Origin: an uncultured Alphaproteobacteria bacterium
GTDB taxonomy: Bacteria > Pseudomonadota > Alphaproteobacteria > Rhizobiales > Xanthobacteraceae
Assembly: GCA_963807175.1 (NCBI GenBank)
Contig: CAWEAC010000005.1
Coordinates: 43,130 to 107,129 of the forward strand
Direction: 5' to 3'
DNA: 64,000 nucleotides
Part shown: piece by piece, positions 25,707-57,912 of the stretch
Layout of the letters: each line of letters begins with the position of its first letter
Position numbering within the stretch: position 1 is the stretch's first letter
Notes under the pieces: generated by a model
What the model was told of the DNA's origin: nothing
Databases searched by the model: none
Seen by the model: the letters and a program-made list of their open reading frames with translations, nothing else
Made by a program: the position numbers and the translations under genes

Positions 25707-25742
25707 ATGGTGGGAGCCGGTTTTTCCGATAAGATCGCGCGC
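25693..25742. repeat. Short palindromic repeat overlapping the MFS stop codon
   Basis: Degenerate reverse complement of the copy at 13359-13407. Confidence 0.65.
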
Positions 25743-28546: not shown

Positions 28547-28568
28547 CTATCGCCGCTGCACAACATCG

Positions 28569-28805
28569 TTAGCTTGACAGCCAGCGCGCGAGATCAGCCG
28601 ATTTCGGCAGGCCGCCCGCATGGACCACTTTGCCATCGATGACGATGCCCGGCGTCGAAGCGATGCCGTAGCCGGCGATGGCCGCATAGTCGGTCACCTT
28701 TTCAACCTTAACCGGGACACCGAGCTTGTCGGCTTCGGTCTGCACCATCTCGGCCGTCGTGACGCAACGCTTGCAGCCAGGGCCGAGGACTTTGACGTCT
28801 TTCAT
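28569..28805 (-). CDS. Small thioredoxin-family protein (MTH895-like)
   Basis: MKDVKVLGPGCKRC...TPGIVIDGKVVHAG, 78 aa, GGAG RBS. Typical partner of ArsP permeases. Confidence 0.85.
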   Translation of the reverse strand: MKDVKVLGPGCKRCVTTAEMVQTEADKLGVPVKVEKVTDYAAIAGYGIASTPGIVIDGKVVHAGGLPKSADLARWLSS

Positions 28806-28822
28806 GACTCTTCTCCGTTTTG

Positions 28823-29070
28823 TTACTGGAATAGCGCGTTGAATAGAAAGCCGACCGCGAGAATGCCGGTGCCGACGACACCAACGAACACCGCAATCAG
28901 GCGGATGGTGAGGACCTTGCGCAAGATGATCATCTCGGGGAGCGACAGCGCTATCACCGACATCATGAAGGCCAGGACGGCACCGAGCGCTGCGCCTTTC
29001 GCGAGTAGCGCCGTGACCACGGGGATGATGCCAGCGGCATTCGAATACATCGGAATGCCGATCAGCACCA
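28823..29070 (-). pseudogene. 3' fragment of an ArsP/DUF318-type permease
   Basis: Only the C-terminal GIPMYSNAAG...LSLPEMIILRKVL segment is present. Homology stops at ~29070. Confidence 0.75.
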
Positions 29071-29071
29071 T

Positions 29072-29530
29072 GCCTGCATCGACCACCGGGCACCCGATTT
29101 TACCGCCCGTCTTGCCGCAGCATGCCCGAAAGGTATCGACGTCTATTTTGAGAATGTCGGCGGCGCGGTATTCGAGGCCGTTTTCCCACTGCTCAGTCCG
29201 TTCGCCCGCATTCCGGTGTGTGGGCTGATCTCCATGTACAATGCCACGTCGCTGTCTCCCGGCCCCATCCTCCTACCGCACATGATGCGGACGATCTTGA
29301 CCAAGCGGTTGATGTTCCGCGGGTTTATCGTCTCCGACTTTTTCGGGCGCTACGGGGATTTCATGCGCGATGTCTCTGCTTGGGTCGCCGAGGGACGGAT
29401 CAAGTATCGCGAAGACGTGGTTGAAGGGCCCAAGAACGCGCCGCGGGCCCTCATCGGCCTCTTGCGTGGGGAGAATTTCGGCAAACTTTTGGTGCGCGTT
29501 GTGGCTCATAATGAAACGCACCAACATTAA
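29072..29530 (+). pseudogene. 3' fragment of an NADP-dependent oxidoreductase (CurA/PTGR-like)
   Basis: In frame from 29072: ACIDHRAPDF...CPKGIDVYFENVGG...RIPVCGLIS...GENFGKLLVRV. The N-terminal half is missing. Confidence 0.8.
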
Positions 29531-33626: not shown

Positions 33627-33814
33627 GAGACGCTCCCGGCGTTCAGCTCGCAAAGCTACATCAAAATCCAGTGCAATTGTGATAGGGCATTGGATGTCGG
33701 CCATGCGCCATGGGCGGCTTCGGGGCAACGGCGCACTGAGCTGCTCCATCGTGGAAGCTTGGACAACTGTCATCTTTGCGGCCTTTTTAATTTTTTGACC
33801 ATACGGGGTGCGCG

Positions 33815-34069
33815 TGTCGATTGCTTCCCCGCTCATGCAGCCTTCCCCAAATGGCAAGAGGGTCGGCATCCGCATTGTCACTTTCGAGGCCTGCTCAGGC
33901 TTCACTCACGTTACGGCCCGCCGGATTGCTCAGCCGCCTAAAGCGGCCTTTGTCACAAGGCTCCAGCCCTGCCGGTTACCCGGCCGAGCCGCTCGTCAGC
34001 TACCAGATCAATCGACAACTCTCTGGGTGGAATCTTCCTCCACTAGTGATCCGCGCCTTCGGGGCGCAC
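33815..34069 (-). mobile_element. Group II intron 5' fragment (domain I only, no RT ORF)
   Basis: The minus strand starts GTGCGCCCCGAAGGCGCGGATC... at 34069 and continues as structured, intron-like sequence for ~255 nt. No domain V/VI or intron-encoded protein follows. Confidence 0.62.
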
Positions 34070-34107
34070 TGCCAATAGGCAAATCGCACGCTTGTTTTGA
34101 AATGAAA

Positions 34108-34131
34108 GAGGCCGCCAACCGAGGCGGCCTC
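34108..34131 (-). terminator. Rho-independent terminator of the lipocalin-like gene
   Basis: GAGGCCGCC-6nt-GGCGGCCTC, followed on the minus strand by TTTCATTT. Confidence 0.75.
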
Positions 34132-34148
34132 CGGAGTGAGTTAGCGTT

Positions 34149-34616
34149 TCATTTTGCTTTCTTCCACACGTTCACAGGCGTGATCGCTCCCTCCGGGGTC
34201 TGGACTTTGCTTGCAGTCGTCGTCATGGTGCCGTCTTTGAACGTGACGGTCTGCTCGCGTACAGCGCCTTCGAAGGCTGGTGAACTCGCTCCCTCAACTT
34301 TGGCCGTGAACTTTTTCCCGGCTTCATCAACCGTGTAAGTGCCGTACCAGGCAACCATAGGGGCCGCGGGAGTTCGCACGCTGTCGGTCTTAGACCGGTC
34401 TTTGCCAAGCACGAAGAACGATATCTGGCCGCCACGGTCAATAATGAGACTGCCCTTGGCCCACGGCACTACCTTTTTGCCGTCGGGCATAATTTCACTG
34501 CCCTCAACTAGCGTCCAGCCACCAACGATCTAACTCTTGAGACTTTTCGCCGATGCGATTTGTGACATTACGAGCAGCAGCAAGAAGCCAGACAAAATTC
34601 CAACTATGCGTCGCAT
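34149..34616 (-). pseudogene. Lipocalin-like domain secreted protein with a premature TAG
   Basis: AGGAGG RBS and signal peptide MRRIVGILSG..., then LKS*IVGGWTLV (TAG at 34530-34532) and AWYGTYTVDE. Confidence 0.75.
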
Positions 34617-34734
34617 GAGACCCTCCTAAGGTTCCATTGGGACAGGCTAACGTACCTTTTCAGCAAGGGAAATAACCGCGACATAGATTCGCCCCCGTGA
34701 TGCTAACTGTGCCGACGTTCTGCTTATTTTAACC

Positions 34735-34843
34735 GCTTAGGGTCATTCACGTCATAGCCGTCGTGGGCCAAAATTGACGTTTGTCGGTTGTTAGTCCAAT
34801 CGCGTCCTAAATGCTGCGTCGCGGAGAATGCAGCGTTGTGCCA
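34735..34843 (+). repeat. Island repeat-family unit, left part; continues at 36236-36295 after the IS110 element
   Basis: Modules GGGTCATTC / TGTCGGTTGTTAGTCCAATCGCGTCCTAAA / TTGTGCCA-AAAGCGGAC. Near-identical to 46860-46910. Confidence 0.65.
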
Positions 34844-34859
34844 TGTGTGGACGGCTCCG

Positions 34860-35119
34860 AGTTGGCAAGAGCTTTTTTCATGTTTGCAGGCTTGGTCGGT
34901 GCAGCCATGTGTTCGGCCTTTAAGTGCGGTTCACATGACCGCTGGCCATAATGCCCTCCGCGGATCAGGTCCCGGTCAAAAGCACGCATTCGACAATGCG
35001 TTGGCACAAGTGGGTTGTCCTGATCGCCGGATCGACCGGCTCTGCATTACGTGCTGTTCGCCCTTTCCAACCTTCACATCACGCCGGGTGTCCGGCGCGA
35101 TCTCGTTTACGCCGCAAAT
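34860..35119 (-). ncRNA. Putative bridge/seek RNA of the IS1111-type element
   Basis: Guide-like segments match the empty target and the circle junction, each pair split by a hairpin (see findings). RNA ends are not defined. Confidence 0.72.
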
Positions 35120-36151
35120 TTACGCCGCGAGTGCGACGGGTTCCTTATAACGCTCGCCTCTGGCCATCATGGCCCAGGCCATCCGGGCTAGCTTGTTGGC
35201 AAGCGCGATGGCCGCGACCTTGGTTGGCTTTCGAGCCAGCAATGCCGTGAGCCAGGGCCGATGCTTGGTGCCATGGATCTTGGCGTAGCGGATGACGGCG
35301 AGCGCGCCGGCCATGAACAGGCTGCGCAGATAGCGGTCACCCTGCTTACTGATGCTACCGAGCCTGTCCTTGCCCCCGCTTGAGTGCTGCTTCGGCACCA
35401 ACCCAATCCAGGCCGAGAAGTTGCGCCCTGATCGAAAGACCTTTGGGTCAGCGACGCAGGCAACCAGGGCCGTAGCCAGCATCGGACCGACACCGGGGAT
35501 CGCATCGAGCCGCATACTCGCCTCATTAGATCGATGCCAGGCCATGATCTGTCGGTCGAACTCCAGAATCTGCTCCTTGAGCCTACGCAGTTGAGCCCCA
35601 AGTGCTGCGAGGCACACCCGTGCAACCTTGGGCAACCGGTCGTCATTTGAATCGGCGACGACATCGAGAAGTTCCTCGACACCCTTGCGCCCGACTGGTG
35701 CGACGATCCCGAACTCGGCCAAATGGGCCCGGATCACATTGATCACCGCGGTCTGCTGGCGGATGAACAGATGGCGCGTGCGATGGAGCATCAGACAGCT
35801 CTGCTGTTCTGGGGTCTTGGTTGGCACGAACCGCATATTGGGCCTGGTGACCGCCTCACAGATCGCCTCCGCGTCAGTGGCATCGTTCTTCTGCCGTTTG
35901 ACGTAAGGCTTCACGTAGGCCGGCGGCATCAGGCGCACCGTATGACCGAGCGCCTTGAGCTCACGCGACCAATGGTGCGACGAGGCGCAAGCTTCGATCC
36001 CGACCAGGCATGACGGCAGCTTCTGGAAGAACGCCAGGACATAGCGGCGTTTCAACTGACGCCGGATGATTACTCTATCTTCTGCGTCGATGCCGTGAAC
36101 CTGAAACACCGACTTGGCGATGTCGAGACCGATTGTCGTAACCGTTTGCAT
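35120..36151 (-). CDS. IS110 family transposase/recombinase
   Basis: DEDD RuvC-like motifs IGLDIAK, GIEAC and KNDATDAEAI; Tnp20 domain IPGVG, GLVPKQHSSGGK and ISKQGDRYLR. Confidence 0.95.
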   Translation of the reverse strand: MQTVTTIGLDIAKSVFQVHGIDAEDRVIIRRQLKRRYVLAFFQKLPSCLVGIEACASSHHWSRELKALGHTVRLMPPAYVKPYVKRQKNDATDAEAICEAVTRPNMRFVPTKTPEQQSCLMLHRTRHLFIRQQTAVINVIRAHLAEFGIVAPVGRKGVEELLDVVADSNDDRLPKVARVCLAALGAQLRRLKEQILEFDRQIMAWHRSNEASMRLDAIPGVGPMLATALVACVADPKVFRSGRNFSAWIGLVPKQHSSGGKDRLGSISKQGDRYLRSLFMAGALAVIRYAKIHGTKHRPWLTALLARKPTKVAAIALANKLARMAWAMMARGERYKEPVALAA

Positions 36152-36520
36152 GTTTGGCTCCTCCGGATTGTGGGGGCCTTAACAGCGCCCACATTCATGG
36201 CACTCACGTGCCGGTGGAGGAGCCGTCCACAGCATCAAAAGCGGACTCATACACCGCAGCAAACAATATCGCTATTCAATCACCTCGTCGCGTCCTTGCT
36301 GCGGCGACAATCAGATTTTCTTTCTTAATTCCGAACGGCAGAAATTGAATAGCCTATCATCCCCAACTTCCCGCCTCCCGATAATCGGGTCTGATCGGAT
36401 GAAAGCGTCAGCCGCTCTATGGCATTGTCACAATAAATATTTGGAACACGGTGCGATGAGGCACAAGCCAACGTAAAGCCCTACGTCAAACGCATCGCTC
36501 CCTAACGGATCTTTCGCGCG

Positions 36521-37738
36521 TCAGTGCGCGACTGACATGATCTCGCCGCGCCGCTCCGGACTGAAGCGGATTACGATGACGATCGCAACTGCGACGATCC
36601 CCGCCACCAGCGCGAGCGCGAAGCTGTAATTGCCGCCTGAAGACTCGGCGATCTTTGCCTGGAACGGGCCGTTGTAAGAGGCAAGGAAATTACCGACTTG
36701 ATAGACGAAGCCGGGCAGCGTCGCGCGTACCGGGCCCGGCGAGAGTTCATTGAGGTGGGCAGGAATGACTCCCCAAGCGCCCTGCACGCTGATTTGCATG
36801 ATGAAGGCACCGATGGCGAGCATGAAGGGCGTCGACGAATAGGCCCACAGTGGCAACGCAGGTAGCGCGATGAGTGAGGCGATGGTGATGGCGTTAACGC
36901 GGCCGATCTTCTCCGACACAAAGCCAAAGAAAAGGCCGCCGACGATCGCGCCCAAATTGGCGACGATGGTAATCCAGCTGACGGTAGTGTGATCAAACTC
37001 ATGCTGCTTTTGTAGGAAGGTCGGATAGAGGTCCTGAGTACCGTGACTGAACAGGTTGAAGCACATCATCAGCACCACGGCATAGAGCGCGATACGCCAA
37101 TTGGCGCGTAACGTGTCGATCAGTTTCGGTTTGGCGGCCTTCTGCGCTTCTGCGAATGGCGGCGACTCGGGTACATGCGAACGGATGAACAACACGACGA
37201 GTGCGGGAATAACACTGAGCAGGAACATCGCGCGCCAGCCGATGTTAAAACCGCCAATGCTGTGCTGATAGAGCAGCCCATATGCGATCGAAGCGAGCAG
37301 ATAGCCAGTGGGATAGCCGCATTGCAGAAGGCCGGAAACGAAGCCACGCGCCTGCGGCGGAATCGATTCCATTGCAAGCGAACTACCTAGGCCCCATTCG
37401 CCGCCCATTGCGATGCCGAACAAGGCGCGCAACAGCAGGAATATCCATAGACTTGGCGCGAAGGCCGCGAGAGCGCCGACCACGGAGTAAGAGATTATGT
37501 CGAGCATCAGGATTGGCTTGCGGCCGAATCGGTCGCCGAGACGACCGAAGATGAAGGCGCCGATGAAGCGCATGGCGAGCGTAAGGAACAACGCGTAAGC
37601 TACTTGCGAAATCTCAACGCCGAACTCCTTCGCGATGTCTCCCAGTAAGAAGACGAGAAGAAAAAAGTCGAAGGCGTCAAGCGTCCAGCCGAGGAAAGCG
37701 GCGAGAACGGTCTTCTTCTGCGCGCTCGTCAAAGTCAT
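36521..37738 (-). CDS. MFS transporter, SHS family (NanT/Jen1-like carboxylate transporter)
   Basis: FLGWTLDAFDF, GDRFGRK, GIAMGGEWG, SHGTQDLYPTFL and QGAWGVIPAHLNE motifs. Confidence 0.88.
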   Translation of the reverse strand: MTLTSAQKKTVLAAFLGWTLDAFDFFLLVFLLGDIAKEFGVEISQVAYALFLTLAMRFIGAFIFGRLGDRFGRKPILMLDIISYSVVGALAAFAPSLWIFLLLRALFGIAMGGEWGLGSSLAMESIPPQARGFVSGLLQCGYPTGYLLASIAYGLLYQHSIGGFNIGWRAMFLLSVIPALVVLFIRSHVPESPPFAEAQKAAKPKLIDTLRANWRIALYAVVLMMCFNLFSHGTQDLYPTFLQKQHEFDHTTVSWITIVANLGAIVGGLFFGFVSEKIGRVNAITIASLIALPALPLWAYSSTPFMLAIGAFIMQISVQGAWGVIPAHLNELSPGPVRATLPGFVYQVGNFLASYNGPFQAKIAESSGGNYSFALALVAGIVAVAIVIVIRFSPERRGEIMSVAH

Positions 37739-37974
37739 GGGCCCCCCAAATCGACATTCCCCAGATAGCCGCCGATGTCAGCTCCATGTTGCCTCTGGTG
37801 TGGCGCCCTGGCAAGCATCCCTTACATTAAGACAATTCCGATGAACGCGCCCCGCCTCATGCTAACCCCAAGCTCCGAAGGCGCATCCCATAGGTTTAGA
37901 CGAGTGCTTTGATAGGGGCGGAAACCGACATCAAAACCATTGCCGAAGTGCACAGCCGATGTCCGCTAAGTGCC

Positions 37975-39555
37975 GATTTTGTTGCAGAAGTGATTTGAAG
38001 GCTTTGGCGAACAGTGATTCTTTCTTCTGACGACATTTTGCGTCGGAGGCGGGCGATGATGGGACGCCAGAACAACGACCAGGGTCCTTTATTCTATGAG
38101 TTCCGCCTCGATGAGGCGGTTCCTGATGATCATCTGGTGCGCAAGATCGACGCCGTTCTCGATCTATCATGGGTACACGCAGAACTCGCGCCGCACTATC
38201 CAACGCTCGGCCGGCCCTCGGTTGATCCGGTGCTGATGATCCGGATGCTGATCGTCGGTTATGTTTTTGGCCTGCGTTCCGAGCGGTTGCTGTGTCGCGA
38301 GGTTCAGGTGAACCTCGCCTATCGATGGTTTTGCAAGCTCGGCATCGAGCACAAGATCCCTGATCATTCGGCGTTCTCGCGTGCACGCAATGAGCGCTTC
38401 CGCGACAGCGGCATCTTCCGCCAGGTATTCGAGCGTGTGGTCGAGGCGTGTATCGCAGCCGATCTCGTTGGCGGAGAAGGGTTTGCCGTGGATGCCAGCC
38501 TGATTGCGGCCGATGCCAACAAGCAGCGCTCGATCCCGGGCGCAGAATGGCAAAAGACACGCGATCCCAAGACGGCGAGCCGGGCCATGAAGGAGTATCT
38601 GGCAACCCTCGATGATGCGGCCTTTGGTGCGGCGAGCGATGTCACACCGAAGTTCGTCTCGCCGTCCGATCCGGCCGCGCAATGGACCGGCGCGATGCGA
38701 GGACCGGCGTTCTTTGCCTATGCCGACAACTATCTGATCGACGTGAAGTGCGGCGTCATCATGGGTGTCGAAGCCACGCGCGCTATCCGCCAGGCCGAAG
38801 TCGGCGCGGGGAAGACCATGGTTGAGCGCACCGAGGAGCGCTTCGATATCAAGCCCAAGTGGCTCGCGGCTGATACGGCCTATGGTTCAGGCCCGAACCT
38901 CAACTGGCTCGTCAAAGACAAGGACATTGCGCCGCACATCCCGGTTATCGACAAATCGAAGCGCGAGGATGGAACCTTCAGCCGGGAAGACTTCAGGTTT
39001 GACAAAGAGCGCAACGTCTATGTCTGCCCAGCGGGCAAGATCCTCACCACGACTGGCACGGTGATCGATGATGGCGAGACGCTTCGTTATCTCGCGAGCA
39101 CATCCGACTGTCGGGGCTGCCCGCTCAAGGTGCGATGCTGTCCAAAGGCATCGTTCCGCAGGATTCCGCGCAGCATCTATGAAGAGGCGCGCGACGTTGC
39201 CCGCGCACTGGCCAAGACCGAAGCCTTCGAACAATCACGCCGTGATCGCAAACGCATCGAGATGCTGTTCGCCCATCTCAAGCGCATCCTGAAGCTTGGT
39301 CGCCTTAGGCTTCGTGGCCCGCGCGGCGCACAGGATGAGTTCACGCTTGCGGCTATCGCACAGAACCTACGCCGGCTCGCCAAACTGGTCGTTAGGCCAC
39401 CACCGATGGCCGCCGCTTGTGCCGCGTAAGCGTTGCGGTTGTCAGTGCTACTGACTCAAGGGCCCCATCGCCAGATGAAGCGGGCGCAGTAGAAGGGTTC
39501 AATACATCGAGGCAATTGCCGCGCTCTTCGAATCGCCGACTTCTGCAACAAAATC
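37975..39555 (+). mobile_element. IS1182-family element
   Basis: Perfect 17-bp terminal inverted repeats GATTTTGTTGCAGAAGT (37975-37991, 39539-39555). 4-bp TGCC target duplication at 37971-37974 and 39556-39559. Confidence 0.9.
38056..39429 (+). CDS. IS1182 family transposase
   Basis: GRPSVDP, PDHSAFSRAR, VDASLIAA, AADTAYG and RIEMLFAHLK motifs. Confidence 0.9.
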   Translation: MMGRQNNDQGPLFYEFRLDEAVPDDHLVRKIDAVLDLSWVHAELAPHYPTLGRPSVDPVLMIRMLIVGYVFGLRSERLLCREVQVNLAYRWFCKLGIEHKIPDHSAFSRARNERFRDSGIFRQVFERVVEACIAADLVGGEGFAVDASLIAADANKQRSIPGAEWQKTRDPKTASRAMKEYLATLDDAAFGAASDVTPKFVSPSDPAAQWTGAMRGPAFFAYADNYLIDVKCGVIMGVEATRAIRQAEVGAGKTMVERTEERFDIKPKWLAADTAYGSGPNLNWLVKDKDIAPHIPVIDKSKREDGTFSREDFRFDKERNVYVCPAGKILTTTGTVIDDGETLRYLASTSDCRGCPLKVRCCPKASFRRIPRSIYEEARDVARALAKTEAFEQSRRDRKRIEMLFAHLKRILKLGRLRLRGPRGAQDEFTLAAIAQNLRRLAKLVVRPPPMAAACAA

Positions 39556-39849
39556 TGCCAGGAACGGATATTCCCGATCGCTCTCAACTCAACGAAAACC
39601 TCGGCGGTTGCCCTGCACCGGCGAACCGGCAACCGCAACTGGATTTCTTGCGTTCGGGGAGTGAACTCCACGATGCAGCGGCAGATTTTTCCTATCGGAA
39701 ATAGTAACCCGACGATCCGGAGGCCCATTTCAAATTCGTTAGAGAAATCATCACAGTAATTTGGCCTGCTTCTTGCTGGCCTGTAATTGTCAAAATGCCG
39801 TCTAGCGTGCTTCGCCACGCTCATTGAAGGATGTTGGGAGGGTGTTGCA

Positions 39850-40095
39850 ATGAAAATCCATATGCGGCCGCCGCTTCCACCTCTGCTGCCCGCACCTCTG
39901 CCAAAACCACCGCCGACTGCCTTCCAGTTGGATATGCAGACTGAGGAATTGACCAAAGTCGCGCAGCAGCAAAAAGATCGCCTGAAGAAGCTGTACGGAG
40001 GGCGGAAAAATCCCGGGGACTTAGATGAGGACACCGATTCCGAAACGCAGGAACGCGATCATCGCTCGAACCGGAACCTCGATTTCCTCGCTTGA
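39850..40095 (+). CDS. Small hypothetical protein with a Pro-rich N-terminus
   Basis: 81 aa. GGGAGG RBS upstream. Ends in NLDFLA. Confidence 0.5.
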   Translation: MKIHMRPPLPPLLPAPLPKPPPTAFQLDMQTEELTKVAQQQKDRLKKLYGGRKNPGDLDEDTDSETQERDHRSNRNLDFLA

Positions 40096-40152
40096 GCTAG
40101 CTGTGGCGAGCAAAACTAAATATCCATTAAATCTCATGTGGCAGCGGGGCCA

Positions 40153-40545
40153 ATGACCCACCAGAAAGCCGTGATGGAGAAATTTGCAGCGCAATTTGAA
40201 GCTCTGCCTGAAATTTGGCTTCAAAATGAATTGCTCGAACAAACCAGAGACTACCTAACATGGGGTCGGCGCTTTGAGCGGCTGGAACTCGATCGGCTGA
40301 ATAAAGTGTGGGCCGAAGCATTTCGACAGTTCGTAAGACGGAAGACGGGGCCGCACCTCCGCGACATGGATGACGCAGGAGCGGAGCTTCGTCTCCGCGG
40401 CGAGGAATTCCCTACTGACCTGGTTACATCGGAAGTGGAGCAACTCAGGGCCGCTATTCAGCGCGTTGGTCCCATTTTCCCATCGGCAGAATTCGAACGA
40501 AAGATCGATGAGTTTTTCAGGGATTTGAACAAACCAAAGCACTAA
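40153..40545 (+). CDS. Hypothetical protein
   Basis: 130 aa with protein-like composition and no recognisable motif. Confidence 0.55.
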   Translation: MTHQKAVMEKFAAQFEALPEIWLQNELLEQTRDYLTWGRRFERLELDRLNKVWAEAFRQFVRRKTGPHLRDMDDAGAELRLRGEEFPTDLVTSEVEQLRAAIQRVGPIFPSAEFERKIDEFFRDLNKPKH

Positions 40546-40605
40546 TGCGGGCAGCGCATTTCTCGATACCAATGCAATGTCGCAGATCGGTCATTCGCTG
40601 CGTAT

Positions 40606-40710
40606 TTGTTCGGGCGCTCCCGCCCGAGCTGCGAATGGTCGGACGACGACTACGACGTGTTCGACGGCGATCGGCACATCGGCCGCATCATTTGGACGCA
40701 TGCAGCTGCA
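40606..40710 (+). pseudogene. Fragment of a small hypothetical gene (SRPSCEWSDDDYDVFDGDRHIGRI)
   Basis: Resembles a small accessory-region protein type, then degenerates where it meets the 3' end of the opposite-strand gene. Confidence 0.35.
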
Positions 40711-40725
40711 TTTCGCTCAGCCCCG

Positions 40726-41754
40726 TTACGCCCCCTTGATCGATTGCAACAATTGATCGATCTCACGGATCATTTTCGCCAATTTGTTCTCACGCTCGCT
40801 GACATTGTCGGTGATATGCGAGGCTGCGCCCTTGCGGGATGTGTTATATCGGTACTCGTGGTCAGCTCGGAGCGGGCGACGCGCGCCGTAACCGCTTGTG
40901 GCCGGTACAAGTGAGGTGTACAAGCCGCCTATGGACTGATCCTGCTCATTGGCGAATTCAGGCTGCAGCCCCTCGTCGCGCGGCTCATGCGCTTGTCGGT
41001 CGTCGATCCATTTGGATTGGGAGTGATCGATGATTATTCGCCGGCCACGCATAGTGGAGAATTTTATCATAGAGGTATACAAAAATCCAGCCGCGGTCAG
41101 CCCAACCGCGATGACAAGAAATATTTTCGCTAGCGTTACCGCAGGTGGGAAAGAGTCCGCGGGTTCATCGCTCGGAACTAGGTTCGGCTTCTGCGCCTCG
41201 ACCATCGCAACCGCTGGCGGATCGGGCCATACTAAAGCAGCCGATGGCCCGGTTGTGGGCGCCTTAGCACCGGTCTGGGATGACGCGCTTGCTTGCGGAG
41301 CGGGCGCCTCTTGAGTAGACGTGGCCACACTTTCTTCCTGAATGCGTTGCTGGACAGATTTGTCCGTTGGCGCACTCCCTGTAGGCGCCGCCTGCGTGTT
41401 GGGCGGCGGCAAGGACGGAGCGCTATTGCCAGCACTATTCGATATGGGAGCGCCTGCTGATGCAGTCGCAGACGTTTCGACTGAACCGGCGGATTTTGTC
41501 GGTGCCATTTCCGGTGAAGCATATGCAACAGTGTGTAGCGTTAGTTGGCCTGGCGGACGCAAAAACCAGCACTTACGCCGTTTCTGTCGATCCGTTTTGT
41601 AATACCAGTGGCTTCCCTTCGGCCCGGCGGAATTCGGGGCGGTTATACAATCATCCGCATGCGCGGAAGTTTCGGGCGCTGCGATGCCAACGCCCCATAC
41701 GAGAAACGGAGCCGCAAGTACGATCAATCGAATTGAGATGATTTGACCTGACAT
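40726..41754 (-). CDS. Hypothetical exported/membrane-anchored protein
   Basis: Signal peptide, C-x13-HWYY-x8-CW module, Pro/Ala/Ser linker and one later hydrophobic helix. Confidence 0.6.
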   Translation of the reverse strand: MSGQIISIRLIVLAAPFLVWGVGIAAPETSAHADDCITAPNSAGPKGSHWYYKTDRQKRRKCWFLRPPGQLTLHTVAYASPEMAPTKSAGSVETSATASAGAPISNSAGNSAPSLPPPNTQAAPTGSAPTDKSVQQRIQEESVATSTQEAPAPQASASSQTGAKAPTTGPSAALVWPDPPAVAMVEAQKPNLVPSDEPADSFPPAVTLAKIFLVIAVGLTAAGFLYTSMIKFSTMRGRRIIIDHSQSKWIDDRQAHEPRDEGLQPEFANEQDQSIGGLYTSLVPATSGYGARRPLRADHEYRYNTSRKGAASHITDNVSERENKLAKMIREIDQLLQSIKGA

Positions 41755-41844
41755 GTCGCATCCACCACTGAACCCGCAAAATATCCATGCAATTTTCGAT
41801 TGAAATGCGTCGCAATTGTGGGTTCAGAGGGACCTTTCAAGGTT

Positions 41845-41880
41845 TGGGTCCTAAATGACGCGATGTGCCATAAGCGGCCA
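41845..41880 (+). repeat. Island repeat-family unit (shortened)
   Basis: TTGGGTCCTAAATGACGCGATGTGCCATAAGCGGCC. Confidence 0.5.
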
Positions 41881-41892
41881 CTGCGCGCCTAG

Positions 41893-42351
41893 TTAGTAGC
41901 AGCGAACAATATTTACGGATTGCATTTTGCCGCCACCCCGAGGAACCGTTACGGTCTGCGAGCGGCAGTCCGACGCATATCTGACCACAGGCGGATATCG
42001 ATGCACCGCATCCCAGGGGACATCATATGTGTAGGTGACATGCTGCGATATTGATCGCGCAACATCCACATTCGGCTCGAAATCCGAGGGCTGCAGTTTT
42101 TGATTGATGCCGTAGAAGCCCCCTGCTGTCGCCCAGAGCGCCCAGTCTGCATTGCGTTTGCCGTGATCCCGTCGCGATGAGAAATTTGCGTGAACTCTCG
42201 GTCGCATGACTGATGGGCTGGAGGCCGAATGCGTCGAAGCAGATTTTCCGCCAGGCGCTGCTCCCGACCTGCCGAATGACTCGTTTGGTGCAAGGGTGAG
42301 GGCTACGCTAAGAGATGCGATAAAGGCCGTCGCATACATTCTATGCATCAT
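41893..42351 (-). CDS. Hypothetical secreted protein
   Basis: Signal peptide and C-terminal YTYDVPWD...C...VNIVRCY. Confidence 0.55.
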   Translation of the reverse strand: MMHRMYATAFIASLSVALTLAPNESFGRSGAAPGGKSASTHSASSPSVMRPRVHANFSSRRDHGKRNADWALWATAGGFYGINQKLQPSDFEPNVDVARSISQHVTYTYDVPWDAVHRYPPVVRYASDCRSQTVTVPRGGGKMQSVNIVRCY

Positions 42352-42599
42352 AGGACTCGCCATTTTTACGCTACCAAGCATACATTCCAACGCATTCTAG
42401 CTCAGGCCCTTTGTATCCACCAGATCCATCCGCTCGGATTTCAAAACCATAGCGAAAGCGGCCGAGCCGCGCCCTTTGCGTGCTGAAGCCACGCCCGTAT
42501 TACAGCCGCCCTCAAGCCAGACGGTGGCATCCTACCGGCTAAAACTAGACCGAGGAAAGGGACTGAAAGCGGCTTTGGGCAGATGTTCGTTGGTACAGC

Positions 42600-42725
42600 C
42601 AATGTCGCAGTTGGGTCATTCGCTACTGATCCATTCCACGCCAGTATCAAAAAATGGTCGCTGTGCCTCCGATAGCGACAAAATCCGGGCAATGCCCCGA
42701 ACGACGCTAAGCGCCAAAAGCTGAC
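42600..42725 (+). repeat. Island repeat-family unit (three hairpin modules)
   Basis: ATGTCGCAGTTGGGTCATTCGC / GTCGCTGTGCCTCCGATAGCGAC / GACGCTAAGCGCCAAAAGCTGAC. Confidence 0.6.
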
Positions 42726-42813
42726 TCCTAACGCATGATCTGTCATGTAGGCTAAATAAGCGGCAGAAAATCAAAACAGTTTGGCCGCATGAATCGTACC
42801 AGAGGGGTAAGAA

Positions 42814-43199
42814 ATGTCTGAAGCACACACCATTCAGGTAGGTAGACTATATGCGGATGAACTTGGGGAAAGTCGGCTCGAGAGTCTAACGATACCAATG
42901 TCGCCAAAGGACTTCGCTCCACCGGCTGCTCCATGCGACGTGGCAGACGTCCAACCGGCCCAGAATTACGTATTATAGAGCTTCCGGTTGGTTGGGGTGG
43001 CACCGAACCGCACCCGACGCCCGGCCGCCACATGCTATTTATGTTGTCGGGCAGCTTCCGCGTGAAACCGAGTTTGGGCGAAGCACGTACCTTCGTTGCT
43101 GGGGACGGCCTCCTAATGGAGGACACGTCCGGCAAAGGGCACATGACCGAGGTCACATCAGACGGCCCGGTCAAAACAGTGATGATCCGGCTCGCGTAA
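42814..43199 (+). pseudogene. Cupin-domain protein with a frameshift at ~42972
   Basis: GAGGGG RBS and MSEAHTIQVGRLYADELGESR..., then a frame change to IIELPVGW...HPTPGRH...GDGLLMEDTSGKGHMT. Confidence 0.7.
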
Positions 43200-43305
43200 T
43201 CCCTTAAGCGTTTACGCGGGTGCGTGACTATCCGGCAGCTCAACCGTCCGCTATCTTTTACGCCGTTCCGGCGTTCATCATAGAAATGCTGGCCGGGAGT
43301 AAGCA

Positions 43306-43608
43306 ATGCCAAAAGGTTACTAGTTTGCACGAGTCGACGTGAATAATCTGGACAACTACAAGTTATACGCAACCGCCATCCAGCCGGTTTTCAAGAAGTT
43401 TGGCGCGCGCTATCTCACTCGCGGTGGCCGGTCTGAGAATGTCGAGGGCGGAAATAGATCGCGGAACGTGGTCATCGAGTTTCCGGATTACGAAGCCGCG
43501 CTCGCCTGCTATCGGTCGCCGGAATACACTGAAGCGAAAAAGCTCCGCGCTTCCGCGTCGGCTGGCGATATTATTATTCTCGAAGGCTATGACGGGCCGC
43601 AGCCGTAA
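43306..43608 (+). pseudogene. DUF1330 protein with a premature TAG at codon 6
   Basis: MPKGY*FARVDV...FGARYLTRGG...RNVVIEFPDYEAALACYRSPEY. The TAG at 43321-43323 is where W is expected. Confidence 0.8.
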
Positions 43609-43659
43609 GTATTACCAGAACATACGGGTGCCGCAGCGGTTGCCATCTTTACAATTTTA

Positions 43660-43790
43660 CAATGTTCGCCATGGGTCGCGCTGCGGAGCAATTCAGCCGT
43701 AGCGCAGACCTTTGTCCGTCATGCTCCGAAAGCGACCAAACTTTTGCAGCGCAGCAAAGTTCCAAAAGCCGACATCAGGTCTACGATGCA
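43660..43790 (+). repeat. Island repeat-family unit
   Basis: GGGTCGCGCTGCGGAGCAATTCAGCC...TTTGTCCGTCATGCTCCGAAAGCGACC; shares CGCTGCGGAGCAATTCAGCC with the 46795-46910 unit. Confidence 0.62.
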
Positions 43791-43836
43791 AATAGTCGTC
43801 GGGCCCGCCAACTAAAGCGGTCAGGGGAGGCACAAA

Positions 43837-44181
43837 ATGCGGCTGGCTAGAAGAGTTTTTGTCGCGTTTGTGATGACCGCCACTGCGCTAATTGCAGAAA
43901 CAAATATGGTTCGAGCAGCCGGTAGCTGTAGTGAACAATACGGCACCTGTTTTAGTATGTGCAAACAAAACGGTTTTGGCAGAAAGCGCGCCGATCATCC
44001 GCATCCTCAATCGGCGGAAACATGCCGCAATCACTGCATAGGATGGAAAACCAGCTGCCTGCGAACTGGATGCCGGAACGGTGATCTCGTTCAAGTATGC
44101 GGTCTCGACAAGCGCCAGTTTTGCCGCCCAACGTCGGCTTGCTCCAATAGATGGGGTAATCGGCCGGCAGCTTGTGGATAG
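43837..44181 (+). CDS. Small Cys-rich secreted protein, probably reading through a lost stop codon
   Basis: Signal peptide followed by 8 Cys ending CGLDKR. The tail runs through the repeat into the IS end. Confidence 0.6.
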   Translation: MRLARRVFVAFVMTATALIAETNMVRAAGSCSEQYGTCFSMCKQNGFGRKRADHPHPQSAETCRNHCIGWKTSCLRTGCRNGDLVQVCGLDKRQFCRPTSACSNRWGNRPAACG

Positions 44182-44268
44182 CTGAAGAATCTGGGTGCTG
44201 CGCTTCAGGCTGATGGTGAATACGAGGTCCGTTGTCGCGGCCTCAAGCATCAGAAGGAGAAGCGCAGC

Positions 44269-45297
44269 ATGGACCATTTTGCTGGATTGGACGTATCGGT
44301 CAAGGAGACCAGCGTCTGCGTTGTGGATGACATGGGCAGGATTGTACGAGAAGTGAAGGTAGCGAGCGAGCCTGAAGCTCTGCTGCAAGTCTTGAAGAAT
44401 CCCGCCTACCACTTCAAGCGGATCGGACTGGAAGCCGGACCATTATCGCAATGGCTGTTCAGTGCACTCGCCGAAGCGGGCTTGCCGGTGATCTGTGTCG
44501 AGACGCGGCACATGCGGGCGGTGTTGAAAGCACAAATCAACAAGACCGACCGCAACGATGCACGCGGCATGGCGCAGATGATGCGGGCGGGGATTTACCG
44601 CCCGGTGCATGTAAAGACGCTGCGCAGTCAGAAACTGCGAATGCTGCTGACCCACCGCAAGCTGCTGCAGTCCAAGGCCATTGCCATCGACAACGACCTG
44701 CGCGGCACCTTGCGCAACTTTGGCCTCAAAGTGGGTATAGTCAGGACTGCAAAGTTCGAAGCCCGCATCAGGGAGCTGGTCGAAAACTTTCCCGACTTGG
44801 CCGCTCTGGTCGAACCACTGCTCGTTGTCCGACGGACGCTTCGCGAGCAGTTCTGCGTCCTGCACCGCCGCTTGCTCGCTATCGTGCGGGACGATGAGGT
44901 GTGCCGGCGCCTGATGACGACGCCCGGTGTAGGGCCCGTGGTGTCGCTAACCTATCGTGCCACCGTCGATGTACCCGCACGCTTTCGTAGGTCCAAGTCA
45001 GTCGGGGCGGTGTTTGGTCTGACGTGTGCCAAGTATCAATCGGGCGAGGTGGATTGGAGCGGCAGAATATCATGCTGCGGAGATGAGATGATGCGAGGCA
45101 TGCTCTACGAAGCAGCTCAGGCCATGATGCGTTCGAAGAAATGGTCATGGCTCAAGGCCTGGGCGATGCAGATCGCCAGGCGCCGCGGGATGAAGAAGGC
45201 GATCGTGGCGCTGGCGCGCCGGCTGGCCGTGATCATGCACCGCATATGGGTTGATGGCACCGAGTTCCGCTGGACCCGGGAGGCCGCAGTGGCATGA
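44269..45297 (+). CDS. IS110 family transposase/recombinase
   Basis: AGLDVS, IGLEAG, NKTDRNDARG, TPGVG, YQSGE and ISCCGDEMMR motifs. Confidence 0.95.
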   Translation: MDHFAGLDVSVKETSVCVVDDMGRIVREVKVASEPEALLQVLKNPAYHFKRIGLEAGPLSQWLFSALAEAGLPVICVETRHMRAVLKAQINKTDRNDARGMAQMMRAGIYRPVHVKTLRSQKLRMLLTHRKLLQSKAIAIDNDLRGTLRNFGLKVGIVRTAKFEARIRELVENFPDLAALVEPLLVVRRTLREQFCVLHRRLLAIVRDDEVCRRLMTTPGVGPVVSLTYRATVDVPARFRRSKSVGAVFGLTCAKYQSGEVDWSGRISCCGDEMMRGMLYEAAQAMMRSKKWSWLKAWAMQIARRRGMKKAIVALARRLAVIMHRIWVDGTEFRWTREAAVA

Positions 45298-45566
45298 CGG
45301 CCGTAGGCAATCAAATACGATAGGAGGAATCTCGAGTTCCACTAAGCCGTGGAAAGATGTCCCTCGCGGGACGATGGATGAGGTGAGTTCGTTTGTCCGC
45401 TTGGACCTGCCGTCACTCTGCCGGCAAGGCCGCCCAATAGATTGTTCCGCCTCGTCTTCGAATCCCATGATGGAAAGGCCTTCGTGCCGATTCCGAAGAG
45501 AAGCACGAGCCCGTGAGCGACATCGGCACTGCAGTGGTGGATAGTCTGAAAGTGCTTGACCCCAAA
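45298..45566 (+). ncRNA. Putative bridge/seek RNA of the second IS110 element
   Basis: Target and donor guide-like segments are separated by hairpins (see findings). RNA ends are not defined. Confidence 0.72.
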
Positions 45567-45659
45567 CGGCCGATTAGAGAAGCGGACAACGCGGGAGCGG
45601 CCGGAATGTTCGTTGAGTGCCATAGGCGACCTGCAAGTGCCAGCGATGTCGTGCTTGTC

Positions 45660-46675
45660 TTAGTCGATACTGAGATGGATAAGTCGCTTCCCGAGGTTTT
45701 CTCCCCGATAAAGCTCGGCAATGGCGCCAGGCAATGCTCCAGCCCCTCGTCAATATCTTCGCGATACCGCAATCTGCCATCGCGAACCCAACTGGCGAGG
45801 CGCGCTATCGCTTCTTCAAAGCGGTGTGCGTAGTCGAAAATAAGCAAGCCGCTCATGCGCGCTCGCTTCACAAGCAAATACCGTTCGATGCGAGGGCCTT
45901 GCGGTGGTGGGTCCCAGCTTGAAATCGAAGCTGTACCGCAAACGACTATTCGAGCGCCAATGGCTAGCTGCGCGTAAACTGTATCGCTGATATCACCCGC
46001 GGTATTATCAAAATAGACATCGACGCCGTGCGGACAGGCAACGGCCAACGCCGTGCTAAGATTGTCAGCTTTGTAGTCTATCGCTTCGTCATAGCCAAAT
46101 TCATCGCGGCACAACTTCATCTTAGTCGGCCCACCGGTGATACCGATAGTGCAACAACCCATCAGTTTCGCAATCTGGCCGACTGCGGAGCCGACCGCAC
46201 CTGCCGCGGTAGAAACAACGACCGTGTCACCGGGCCGAGGCGCACCTAAATCCAGTAGTCCGATATAAGCGGCCACGCCATTGAGCCCGAGAATGCCTAG
46301 CGACAACGATAGCGGTAGATCAGTTTCGTTGACTTTGCGAGTGATCGAAGCGCCATCGGATATGGCGAACTGTTGCCAGCCAAGCATGCCCATCACCTTA
46401 TCGCCTTCCGAGTAGCCAGGATGGCGGGACGCTATGACTGTGCCAGCTGCAAAAGAGCGCATAACTTCGCCGATGCCGACTGGTGTCGCGTAATTGGTGA
46501 CTGCACTGACCCAGCCGCGCATTGCCGGTTCGACCGACAAATATTCATTGCGTACCAAAAATTGTCGCTCAGCAAGCTCTGGCACCGACGTCTCGACAAT
46601 CTCGAAATGCTCGGCCTGTGGAATGCCGGTTGGGCGTGCCTTGAGCCGGACCTGTCTGTTGAGCCCTTCCGCCAT
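45660..46675 (-). CDS. NADP-dependent oxidoreductase (CurA/PTGR-like), with an apparent frameshift at ~45730
   Basis: LSVEPAMRGW, VSTAAGAVGSAVGQ and CPHGVDVYFDN motifs. Adding one base restores CPGAIAELYRGENLGKRLI and a stop at 45660-45662. Confidence 0.85.
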
Positions 46676-46794
46676 GCTTACTCTGATCCACTAATGCTAA
46701 AGGGCCGCATGCTCCTGCGGCAATTGAGAGGCCGGGCGAAAGACTGCACAAGTCTCGAACTTCTTACTACAGAAATGGATCGATGGAAATTTAT

Positions 46795-46910
46795 CGATGT
46801 CCGAGTCGGGTCAATCGCTGCGGAGCAATTCAGCCCCAGTGCCGCCCTTTGTCCGTTATTGTCTAATCGCGTCCTAAATGGTGCGGCGCGGGGAACGCAG
46901 TCATGTGCCA
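46795..46910 (+). repeat. Island repeat-family unit
   Basis: ATGTCCGAGTCGGGTCAATCGCTGCGGAGCAATTCAGCC...TCGCGTCCTAAATGGTGCG...TGTGCCA. Confidence 0.65.
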
Positions 46911-46925
46911 TGTATGGACGGCGCC
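46911..46925. mobile_element. Orphan IS1111-type end remnant
   Basis: GTGCCA then TGTATGGACGGCGCC, compared with GTGCCA then TGTGTGGACGGCTCC at 34838-34858. The rest of the element is absent. Confidence 0.55.
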
Positions 46926-47059
46926 TACAAAACTCGAAATTGCTGGAGTATCACAATCGCCATCTGCTCAGCGGCGTGGGTATATCTGCCGTCAAACAGG
47001 AAAAGATCGATGCTGGCCACAATGGCCAGTGTGGCCAGTGTGGCCAGTATCCGAAACAT
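46925..47059 (-). CDS. 44-aa small membrane protein containing a 9-bp tandem repeat
   Basis: MFRILATLATLAIVASIDLFLFDGRYTHAAEQMAIVILQQFRVL. TGGCCAGT(G/A) x3 at 47023-47049. Below the ORF-track size cut-off. Confidence 0.45.
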   Translation of the reverse strand: MFRILATLATLAIVASIDLFLFDGRYTHAAEQMAIVILQQFRVL

Positions 47060-47443: not shown

Positions 47444-47964
47444 CAACCTCTCCTCATTATGCCTTTGCAATCCCGCTTCTTCCGCATTGAAGCCTATCCT
47501 TCGACCTACCGCCACATTCGCCCGACGTTTGCGGCAATATCAATTTTTGAATGCAACGTTTGTTTTCTAGCATCTGGGCCACTTGCTCGATCGCTCCAGT
47601 GCCGCCGGTCAAATGCGGCATGAATTGACTTCGGGATAAACCGGCTGACCGATGCATACACGTGGCGATCACAGTTCTCTATCCGGTGGCGGAGCTTGAT
47701 GCATGGGATCAGAAAAACATGGTAATTTGCCATACGCCAAAGTCACGGCGCATGGCCGCATGAGGAAGAATGATGATCGCGCACCGGACCGAAGGTGGTT
47801 TATTGATCCAACGTGATGCAAGAGTACTTGATGGGACAAAGCTCAACTCAGCGGGATCATGGCGATTCGGCACAGCTTGCCGCCCCCGATACGCGTCCCC
47901 TGTCGTCTGAAAATTCCAAAACGTTGAATAATATCAACATTGTAACTTGGCAGAACGTATCCTG

Positions 47965-57828: not shown

Positions 57829-57912
57829 CGTGGGGCCAACGACGGTCGTCCCGCTCCCTTGAAGGCTTGCGAGCCCAAGCGCCGTTTCCTTCGTTTACGG
57901 AGGGGACCTATG
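57829..57912 (+). promoter_or_regulatory. Structured leader, copy 1 (chrB-type RNA motif candidate), followed by a 5-codon ORF
   Basis: Near-identical to 58856-58941, including the GGAGGGG RBS and ATG. Here the ATG at 57910 gives only MATAG*. Confidence 0.65.

Follow-up and report, generated by a model that had tools for sequence, protein, structure and literature searches.

We analysed a stretch of 64,000 nucleotides (nt; hereafter the window) from the genome of an uncultured alphaproteobacterium of the Xanthobacteraceae (GenBank assembly GCA_963807175.1, contig CAWEAC010000005.1, positions 43,130 to 107,129), in which a family of short intergenic repeats lies between the genes of a low-GC island. 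Positions given below are those of the window, unless a locus of another genome (L-number) is named. Low GC content (0.53-0.59, versus 0.62-0.68 in the core) extends over about 27.7-48.1 kb. Its left neighbour is map (methionyl aminopeptidase), which ends at 27638; on the right it adjoins a radC remnant, the final ~160 nt of a gene whose 5' part is missing in the window. In eight related loci (L034-L041) map is followed directly by an intact radC (218-240 aa), and nucleotide synteny between the window and these relatives breaks off at 27638 to restart at 47960-47963, inside the last ~160 nt of radC. Because map and radC are adjacent in the relatives and synteny stops and resumes at the island edges, the island is a strain-specific insertion of 20.3 kb which removed the 5' part of radC. 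Peat and soil metagenomes are the source of the closest public relatives of map (90-93% amino-acid identity), and those slightly further off (84-88%) carry the names Pseudolabrys or Pseudorhodoplanes; the public runs that contain the window are mostly peat, permafrost and soil metagenomes. The island holds no tRNA gene, and a Pfam scan of its open reading frames (ORFs) together with a rough tblastn search revealed no integrase in it. The repeats are confined to its right two thirds, the left third (27.7-33.7 kb) consisting of gene fragments and ordinary genes and being free of repeats. The features on which the argument depends are the following (IS, insertion sequence).

27639-47960: low-GC island, delimited by composition and by synteny with relatives.
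33906-34045, minus strand: 5' fragment of a group II intron (Rfam RF02003, 101 bits, E 2e-21).
34046-34135, plus strand: right arm (TGCCAATAGGCAAAT) and a recurrent module, CGCACGCTTG..GAAATGAAAGAGGCCGCCAAC.GAGGCGGCCTC, which also follows copies in L004, L010, L026 and L031.
34730-34842, plus strand: repeat copy 1, main family, interrupted by IS110#1 after GTGCC; its right arm AAAAGCGGAC resumes at 36237-36250.
34843-36236, minus strand: IS110#1, an IS1111-type element of the IS110 family, transposase gene 35120-36151 (Pfam DEDD_Tnp_IS110 and Transposase_20).
37936-37974, plus strand: single palindromic unit without core, i.e. upstream module and left half ATGTCCGCTAAGTGCC; right half TGCCAGGAACGGATAT at 39556-39571.
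37975-39555, plus strand: IS1182-family element of 1581 bp, with 17-nt terminal inverted repeats and a 4-bp duplication TGCC (Pfam DUF772 and DDE_Tnp_1_6).
40570-40613, plus strand: partial repeat, first palindromic unit and ~25 nt (nhmmer E 0.03, profile positions 6-49; depth profile).
41839-41897, plus strand: partial repeat, right part with internal deletions (GGGTCCTAAATGACGCG..ATGTGCCATAAGCGGCC; nhmmer 41854-41897, E 0.012).
42596-42733, plus strand: repeat copy, full length, divergent (nhmmer E 4e-8).
43657-43776, plus strand: repeat copy, full length, divergent (nhmmer E 8e-6; blastn 72% to 46788-46889).
44124-44151, plus strand: left half (..CGTCGGCTTGCTCCAATAGA) of a single palindromic unit split by IS110#2; right half GAGAAGCGGACAAC at ~45576-45590.
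~44152-45575 (+/-4 nt), plus strand: IS110#2, an IS1111-type element of the IS110 family, transposase gene 44269-45297 (Pfam).
45393-45441, plus strand: guide-like segments in the 3' non-coding region of IS110#2 (exact matches).
46793-46909, plus strand: repeat copy, main family (nhmmer 46793-46932, E 4e-36), right arm replaced by the next feature.
46910-46925: orphan IS end of 16 nt attached to the last copy, like the end of IS110#1 (ATGTATGGACGGCGCC; compared with 34843-34858).

Pairwise blastn comparison yielded just three mutually significant copies in the window (34733-34858, 43653-43752 and 46788-46925), and counts of short motifs were uninformative for finding copies. An nhmmer profile built from 28 copies, those of the window and 26 from other genomes, gave six matches (four full, two partial) between 34.7 and 46.9 kb; copy 1 (34730-34867, E 1e-34) could be aligned with the 26 copies of other genomes. 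All six lie on the plus strand inside the island and none in the 43.7 kb of core, for which the chance expectation is (20.3/64)^6, i.e. ~0.001. Similarly, the right-arm motif GCCAAAAGCGGAC (at most two mismatches) occurs five times, always on the plus strand of the island, with no occurrence in the core or on the minus strand. A first-pass annotation of this DNA had described an island-specific repeat family with mostly the same orientation, and in both respects it was right. Of the at least eight copies it had claimed, six correspond to profile matches; the pairs 37955+39556 and 44130+45581 are palindromic units of the same type, but single units of ~28 nt and not full copies, and the copy at ~33690 has neither a profile match nor a blastn-short match to any locus. 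The surroundings of the latter (33630-33905), like the boundaries of the island, matched no other sequence compared in the analysis. The single unit at 37936-37974 carries a conserved upstream module that precedes full copies in L003 and L023, and the unit at 44124-44151 was recognised by its junction sequences, the matching flanks CCAAWAGA / GAGAAGCRGACA being found again in L016 and L031. Altogether, repeat sequence makes up ~3-4% of the island.

According to the alignment the element is ~135 nt long. It starts with (A)TGTC(C)GC..GGGTCA, continues with a variable hairpin-like segment that exists in two sequence types and with a conserved core of ~40 nt (TTTGTCCGTTGTTGTCCAATCGCGTCCTAAATGGTGCG), and ends with GTGCCAAAAGCGGACAT. 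The underlying palindromic unit (ATGTCCGC..loop..GCGGACAT, ~28 nt) is present three times per full element and alone at 37959 and 44124. The divergent copies show a mosaic of three units to which modules may be added on either side; units lacking the core also occur behind a shared upstream module. This is in line with the modules noticed in the first-pass annotation. The module at 34046-34135 reads on the minus strand as a hairpin followed by a T-rich run, downstream of the gene 34149-34490, and in other genomes several right arms are joined to the sequence of 34089-34097. Within the core there are three TGTCC-like motifs with a spacing of 10 nt, an arrangement that would suit a DNA-binding protein. 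Rfam gave no match on the repeats, either at the gathering score or at E <= 1. Three further readings were rejected: a minus-strand ORF of 29 codons in the core, the start codon of which is not conserved in the alignment; a sigma-70 or sigma-54 promoter in the core, by inspection (poor hexamers, GG-GC spacing 9 instead of 10); and a dif/Xer site in the 28-nt unit, also by inspection (no TTATGTTAAAT-like arm).

The multi-hairpin structure that had been attributed to the copies did not materialise. RNAalifold predicted no consensus pair on the aligned copies, the DNA-fold z-scores of the copies (-1.25 to +0.5) are no better than those of shuffled sequence, and the terminal arms together with one hairpin pair in 57% of the cells versus 33-41% in slid controls, which is weak but above the controls. 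Since RNAalifold, single-sequence folding and the count of the named structures all failed to show a convincing structure, a sequence profile was used instead of a covariance model.

Some of the copies have particular neighbours, continuations or read depths. The first unit of 42596-42733 reaches a depth of 350-600 against 15-25 in runs X22/X23. Fused to the partial repeat at 40570-40613 is an unrelated, multi-copy fragment of a small gene (40618-40703, ..EWSDDDYDVFDGDRHIGRIIWTHAA..) with a depth of 170-350 versus 12-18 for unique DNA in runs X20/X22, and in L001 a repeat is joined by its right part to the beginning of a gene of this family (ATGCTCACCTTCAAACGCGCC). From 41839-41897, metatranscriptome contigs of other strains continue into the repeat-like CCTAAATAGTGCATCGCAGCGAACGCAGTC, although such contigs can jump between copies.

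Other loci with the family were found by searching a collection of species-representative genomes for the exact 20-mer AATCGCGTCCTAAATGNTGCG, taken from the two best window copies, a recruitment that over-represents the best-conserved subfamily. It returned 30 stretches, nearly all from uncultured Alphaproteobacteria/Hyphomicrobiales of Danish soils and a Swedish palsa mire and most of them 8-kb pieces of metagenome-assembled genomes. The family is now defined by 31 loci and is present in at least 17 species-level genome assemblies, nearly all of uncultured Hyphomicrobiales. Its arrays there lie in stretches with a GC content of 0.50-0.60, while the rest of those genomes reaches 0.64-0.74. No copies occur in about 55-70 kb of core DNA of close relatives (including L034, L039 and L040), and none in viral contig or plasmid collections. 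The exact 20-mer is found at most five times per genome and the depth of the repeat is ~4-15x that of unique DNA, which suggests roughly 10-20 copies per genome equivalent, i.e. a low-copy family. Copies from different species are 80-86% alike while the adjoining genes share nothing. Identity within genomes (0.634) is no higher than that between genomes (0.636; small sample) and for 31 of 32 copies the nearest relative lies in another genome, so that there are no within-genome subfamilies and no homogenisation within arrays.

In the 19 other loci with at least two copies these are co-oriented and 0.6-4 kb apart, and over all neighbouring pairs 49 of 50 are co-oriented, the exception spanning a tRNA/integrase junction between two mirrored islands (L044). 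The C-rich strand coincides with the repeat's top strand in 26 of 31 loci (Wilcoxon p = 8e-6) and also when the high-GC flanks alone are considered (10/13, p = 0.006), which suggests a link of repeat orientation to replication direction; strand bias is known for single-strand transposons (PMC6006769) and a replication-linked orientation has been suspected for IS110 targets (PMC3971601). An explanation by replication strand is weakened by L044, where two low-GC arrays of opposite orientation flank one tRNA-Arg gene (9825-9901). Between them lies an inverted 26-nt copy of the 3' end of that tRNA (9696-9720), ~105 nt upstream of the gene, suggesting either an inversion between attachment sites or two mirrored islands. 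Because both arrays of L044 and that of L022 agree in orientation relative to the nearest tRNA end, the orientation of the repeats is a property of each island, and the skew correlation may simply be a consequence of islands lying in a fixed direction behind tRNA genes that are themselves co-oriented with replication. In L019 (1099-1136), at a block edge, the 3' end of another tRNA gene (..GGGTTCGATTCCCGTCGCCCGCTCCA) is followed immediately by a copy that begins at about profile position 47.

All five mobile-element insertions in the island of the window, i.e. both IS110 elements, the IS1182-family element, the orphan IS end and the group II intron fragment, lie in repeat sequence, as the first-pass annotation had noted (for the intron fragment as probable), and specifically in loops of palindromic units. 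This is far beyond chance, because the repeats cover such a small part of the island. IS110#1 was inserted after GTGCC of copy 1 and an identical junction is present in L016; other-strain contigs begin at 36236, and the depth of the element is 545-1343 versus ~12-30 for unique DNA. The IS1182-family element has a counterpart empty site, the intact unit (joint 37970>39556) being present in public runs X2, X20, X22 and X23, and elements like it are found directly after GTGCC in five independent copies (window, L006, L030, L018 and L029). Targeting of hairpins or inverted repeats has been reported for IS1272, a member of the IS1182 family (PMC5678879). IS110#2 (depth 837-2074) has relatives of 88% identity in L016 and 85% in L031, and in all three places the element lies between CCAAWAGA and GAGAAGCRGACA. 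With a contig of run X1, in which the left end of IS110#2 is joined to the middle unit of another copy, elements of this type occupy the same point of the palindromic unit in four independent places. The 5' end (GUGCG) of the intron fragment abuts the right arm of a palindromic unit at 34046. One contig of run X22 skips 1058 nt inside IS110#1 (35033-36092), which suggests internally deleted, non-autonomous derivatives in the community. In L006 (~6320-6345, GTCCGCTTACCCCATCTTTGGGTCA) a copy has ACCCCA in its first unit, complementary to the initial bases of the IS110#2 left end; it is either the scar of a lost IS or a natural empty target.

Both IS110-family elements have the properties expected of the IS1111 group. 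Next to the DEDD and Transposase_20 domains these are subterminal inverted repeats (TGGACGGCTCC / GGAGCCGTCCA in IS110#1 and TAATCGGCCG / CGGCCGATTA in IS110#2) and a long stretch of non-coding DNA (277 nt) 3' of the transposase gene, both of which mark this group (PMC11187229). The point and orientation of insertion recur in both types (IS110#2: window, L016, L031 and run X1; IS110#1: window and L016). For IS110#2 the 3' non-coding region also contains two segments that match the insertion site. The 10-mer TTGTCCGCTT (45393-45402) is the complement of the right flank AAGCGGACAA, and the 8-mer CCAATAGA (45434-45441), 41 nt after it, is identical to the left flank at 44144-44151; joined without the element, the target unit reads CCAATAGA followed directly by GAGAAGCGGACA. 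Both matches together have a p of 5e-5 (1 in 20,000 shuffles), and they concern opposite strands with the complement of the top strand first, as in the published order of the IS1111 seekRNA (PMC11187229). For IS110#1 the flanks yield just 6-7-mers (p = 0.04), too short to count for or against guidance. The segments of IS110#2 may act as RNA, and RNA-guided targeting is the likely mechanism behind the landing pads. Insertion of IS110/IS1111 elements into repetitive extragenic palindromic (REP) sequences is established (PMC1525189, PMC11187229, PMC11208160, PMC12288879). The earlier suggestion that the repeats serve as landing pads is thus well borne out by the five insertions, the recurrent insertion points in other genomes and the guide match of IS110#2.

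Given the repeats, their location and orientation, the insertion points and the guide-target match, all read directly from the DNA, we hold it somewhat more probable than its opposite that the family is a mosaic intergenic repeat like the REP sequences and bacterial interspersed mosaic elements (BIMEs), belonging to a horizontally shared pool of island genes and serving as a landing pad for RNA-guided IS. Each element would consist of three degenerate (A)TGTCCGC-loop-GCGGACA(T) units around a ~40-nt core and would belong to the low-GC, exchanged island pool of uncultured peat and soil Hyphomicrobiales related to Pseudolabrys, and not to their core genome. It would fill the spacers between island genes, and because it occupies these spacers the island may look like a string of single-gene units. 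Three kinds of mobile element would have specific insertion sites in the loops of its units: IS110 elements of the IS1111 type, finding their site via a guide RNA encoded in the 3' non-coding region; an IS1182-family element, inserting after GTGCC; and a group II intron. Rearrangements of the DNA would then tend to begin or end at repeats, presumably by ordinary means (homologous, illegitimate or IS-mediated) and not through a dedicated cassette recombinase. The element itself would be non-autonomous DNA, spreading or being exchanged independently of its neighbours.

Several observations sit uneasily with this interpretation. Classical REPs are genome-wide, high-copy and species-specific, from which the low copy number, the island confinement and the cross-species likeness of our family differ. 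The uniform orientation within arrays is not explained by a passive repeat, the evidence that the palindromic units fold is weak, and for the repeat element neither target-site duplications nor a cognate transposase nor within-genome subfamilies were found.

The first-pass annotation had gone further and proposed that the repeats may be recombination or ssDNA-hairpin sites of an undescribed cassette-capture system. As it stands, this is not supported by the structure of the repeats, the recombinase content of the loci or the few breakpoints seen: there is no stable or covarying hairpin, no recurrent dedicated recombinase, a random ORF direction, and breakpoints fall at differing repeat positions. 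Some kind of cassette-like behaviour stays alive, though we think it rather unlikely, because of the island-only occurrence, the conservation across species beside unrelated genes and the uniform orientation of the arrays; in addition, the rearrangement breakpoints that were seen fall in or beside copies. According to crude ORF calls, 34 ORFs between copies are co-oriented with them and 40 opposed, with the window itself split about half and half, so that the mixed orientation of the cargo noted before holds across loci. Among 257 ORFs of 30 loci the only recurrent mobility genes are IS110 transposases (6/257); group II intron reverse transcriptases and other IS transposases are also present. 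No recombinase other than IS transposases, neither a tyrosine recombinase nor an HUH enzyme, recurs in ~250 kb of array loci. The window was indeed without a recombinase, as had been stated, in so far as the island ORFs that were scanned contain no recombinase domain and a rough tblastn with IntI1 and XerC sequences gave nothing. A rough tblastn search for Y1 transposases, REP-associated tyrosine transposases (RAYTs) and IS200 found nothing in ~330 kb of loci. The co-occurring HUH/Y1 or tyrosine recombinase that a capture system might be expected to have does not, within the limits of these screens, recur beside the arrays.

Only one cassette of the window was found in a second context, namely the one with the gene of a 342-aa secreted protein (40726-41754). 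A metagenome contig (L031) is 97-98% identical to the window over 40589-41838 and has other neighbours, and the right end is confirmed by a Logan contig (L042). The left breakpoint is in the loop of a first unit, just before GGTCA, whereas the right one (41838), 84 nt upstream of the gene, is the point at which the window passes into a truncated copy, and looks like a plain deletion. Both breakpoints of this cassette touch repeats, as the first-pass annotation had expected, but at different positions. A metagenome scan for the 342-aa protein gave one close context, the other close homologues being on contigs of 1.2 kb, and short-read and Logan contigs, which end at or jump between copies, add no cases. 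An apparent core replacement at 42620-42713 was not used, since Logan contigs jump between copies.

The single tyrosine recombinase that the rough tblastn returned is in L022, where a tRNA-Arg(CCG) gene and a gene for a 415-aa integrase (Phage_integrase, E 1.8e-19) lie beside the array (3424-4792), as in a classical tRNA-integrated island, and a repeat follows 226 nt behind the integrase gene. Seven further loci with integrases of 88-93% identity were compared. All are of the tRNA-Arg type, the tRNA gene being seen directly upstream in four of the seven; arrays are present in L044, L043 has a single partial copy ~7 kb away and the other five (four in a second tally) have none. Because most of these homologues are without arrays, and because L022 and L044 show no relationship in the stretch from the integrase gene to the first copy, the arrays are cargo of ordinary tRNA islands with a P4-type integrase and not partners of that integrase.

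One form of the cassette idea is an integron-like platform in which a dedicated tyrosine recombinase inserts circles of a gene plus a repeat at folded attC-like sites. Co-oriented sites of ~135 nt, 0.6-4 kb apart with mostly one or two ORFs in between, targeted by IS1111-type elements and group II introns as attC sites are, and with a first copy 120-230 nt behind an integrase gene in L022 and L044, do resemble such a platform. Yet, the sites have no AAC/GTT core-site pattern, no stable hairpin and no homogenisation within arrays, the ORFs run in random directions relative to them, the island of the window has no integrase, and that of L022 and L044 sits by tRNA-Arg like any island integrase, with 88-93% identical homologues that adjoin no array and unrelated DNA up to the first copy. 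It is largely refuted already and we consider it very improbable. The resident IS1111-type recombinases are better candidates for an exchange of cassettes by site-specific recombination in the unit loops, though we hold this explanation unlikely. A pair of co-oriented IS copies occupying two units would leave the chromosome with the DNA between them, forming an IS-cargo-IS circle that an RNA guide would direct into a third unit; if the IS copies were afterwards lost precisely, cargo bordered by directly oriented hybrid units would remain. Repeats would thereby be genuine boundaries of modules, and the IS the engine and not parasites. IS110 elements are very abundant around the arrays, not only among the ORFs but also by depth (50-100x that of unique DNA in runs X20-X23), directional insertion would give a uniform orientation of arrays, and the transposase of ISPpu9 is known to circularise a small non-coding module alone and to spread it into REPs (PMC12288879). 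Moreover, the left breakpoint of the cassette 40589-41838 in L031 lies a few nt from the insertion point of IS110#2, and an IS110#2-type copy is found ~280 nt past its right end. Against this, it is a single cassette in two contexts with a right breakpoint outside a unit loop, the L031 contig may owe its junction to a misassembly at a repeat, neither an IS-cargo-IS unit nor a circle was seen, the guide match is significant for IS110#2 only, and most copies carry ~100 nt of core that the model does not need.

Slightly less probable in our view is that the ~100-135-nt element is itself mobile, a small non-autonomous element like the miniature inverted-repeat transposable elements (MITEs) or palindrome-associated transposable elements (PATEs), with strand-specific insertion into hairpin loops through single-stranded DNA at replication forks or during transfer of the island. 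It would be moved by a Y1 HUH enzyme (RAYT/IS200-type) or in trans by an IS1111 transposase, as is ssr9. The excess of C-rich top strands, in the loci as in their high-GC flanks, fits such a process, a bias of this kind being known for single-strand transposons (PMC6006769, PMC3971601). So does the occurrence of the element beside unrelated genes in different species, and the same upstream module exists without core (window, 37936-37974) and with core (L003, L023), like empty and filled sites. The skew correlation may have an indirect cause, however, as islands are fixed relative to tRNA genes co-oriented with replication, and L044 has two adjacent arrays in opposite orientation. The absence of within-genome subfamilies also counts against a mobile element, as does that of a Y1/RAYT gene from the ~330 kb subjected to the rough screen.

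Compared with known systems, the family is most like REP/BIME sequences of E. coli and Pseudomonas putida, which are short, imperfectly palindromic, intergenic mosaics and specific targets of IS110/IS1111 elements (PMC1525189, PMC12288879, PMC11208160). It differs from these in being low-copy, confined to low-GC islands (no match in the window core, against a chromosome-wide distribution in high copy), conserved across species and co-oriented in arrays, in its conserved, non-palindromic core of ~40 nt, and in the lack of a RAYT in the rough screen. The ssr9 module of ISPpu9 (P. putida KT2440) resembles it as a small non-coding module that occurs alone in REP-type targets and of which the IS110-family transposase forms circles of the module alone (PMC12288879). 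In contrast to the island repeat, ssr9 has copies of the IS end boxes at its borders; none of the IS in our data has both ends in common with the island-repeat core, although there is a loose likeness between the left end of the core (TGGGTCAATCG) and that of IS110#2 (TGGGGTAATCG). As in a MITE, the ends of the repeat are inverted repeats (ATGTCCGCTTTGG / CCAAAAGCGGACAT), but there is no flanking duplication in the aligned copies, no IS in the data has these ends, and bursts of near-identical copies are missing, judged by identities within and between genomes in a small sample recruited by the 20-mer. IS1272 (PMC5678879) and the IS1111-attC group (Tetu & Holmes 2008, as cited in PMC3971601) likewise choose a structured repeat as a safe target and enter it in one orientation. 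Here, the target family is different and the IS1182-like element of the window makes the 4-bp duplication TGCC, while new IS1272 insertions are reported without one.

With attC sites, as in sedentary integron arrays and clusters of attC sites lacking integron-integrases (CALINs), the family shares co-oriented sites of ~60-140 nt between small genes in variable, compositionally odd DNA, as well as the targeting by IS1111-type elements and group II introns. Unlike these, it lacks IntI, the R/L box pattern and a stable bottom-strand hairpin, its ORFs run in either direction relative to the sites, and within an array the sites are not homogenised. The absence of an attC consensus had been noticed before, correctly, as the ends read ATGTC..GACAT and not RYYYAAC..GTTRRRY. 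To our knowledge, Alphaproteobacteria are reported to lack integrons. The RIMEs (Rhizobium-specific intergenic mosaic elements) and Sm-repeats of Sinorhizobium are, like the island family, intergenic palindrome mosaics of ~100 nt in Hyphomicrobiales; compared by description only, we know of no report of RIMEs as island-specific, co-oriented arrays.

As to the genes among which the repeats lie, Pfam supported the major facilitator superfamily (MFS) transporter, the DUF1330 protein and the oxidoreductase (ADH_N_2/ADH_zinc_N) that had been named in the first-pass annotation; the match of the cupin is weak and the lipocalin found no support. The gene for a 165-aa secreted protein (41893-42390) is covered by contigs of four metatranscriptomes from peat, wetland and permafrost at a depth of 5-50, its expression being evident from the peat and wetland contigs; the cupin, DUF1330 and Cys-rich genes to its right are nearly uncovered, with traces at ~43485-43567 and ~43700-43770. 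The genes at the left end of the island (27740-29530) are broken ones: a member of the OMPdecase/HUMPS family lacks its start, a Thioredoxin_3 domain is joined to a piece of a permease, and a solitary C-terminal fragment, with no Pfam match, resembles a zinc-type dehydrogenase by eye. Just past the last repeat copy, at 47019-47050, a short tandem repeat (GTGGCCAGT) is present three times. The core has other families of palindromic intergenic repeats (888-1027; 15244-15318; 7134-7162, 13381-13409 and 25692-25724) that are unrelated in sequence to that of the island. It also contains an 85-nt direct repeat (57829-57912 and 58856-58941, 93% identical, 1027 nt apart), each copy ending in ATG, which has no Rfam match at the gathering score and looks like a shared leader of two tandem paralogous genes.

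If the REP-like interpretation holds, the family represents one more safe harbour for RNA-guided IS110/IS1111 elements, and provides a useful natural guide-target pair from uncultured soil bacteria as well as a marker of foreign islands. It is a less likely prospect, to which we attach limited credence, that low-GC islands are built from repeat-bounded modules which RNA-guided IS1111 recombinases, or else a strand-specific enzyme not seen here, move from loop to loop; if true, the co-oriented arrays would play the role of integron cassette arrays by a different chemistry. The traits that are not REP-like, i.e. the restriction to islands, the conservation across species beside unrelated genes and the strict orientation within arrays, would together make the packaging and shuffling of accessory genes in Alphaproteobacteria a testable question, and with it the question whether bridge/seekRNA recombinases move host cargo in nature.

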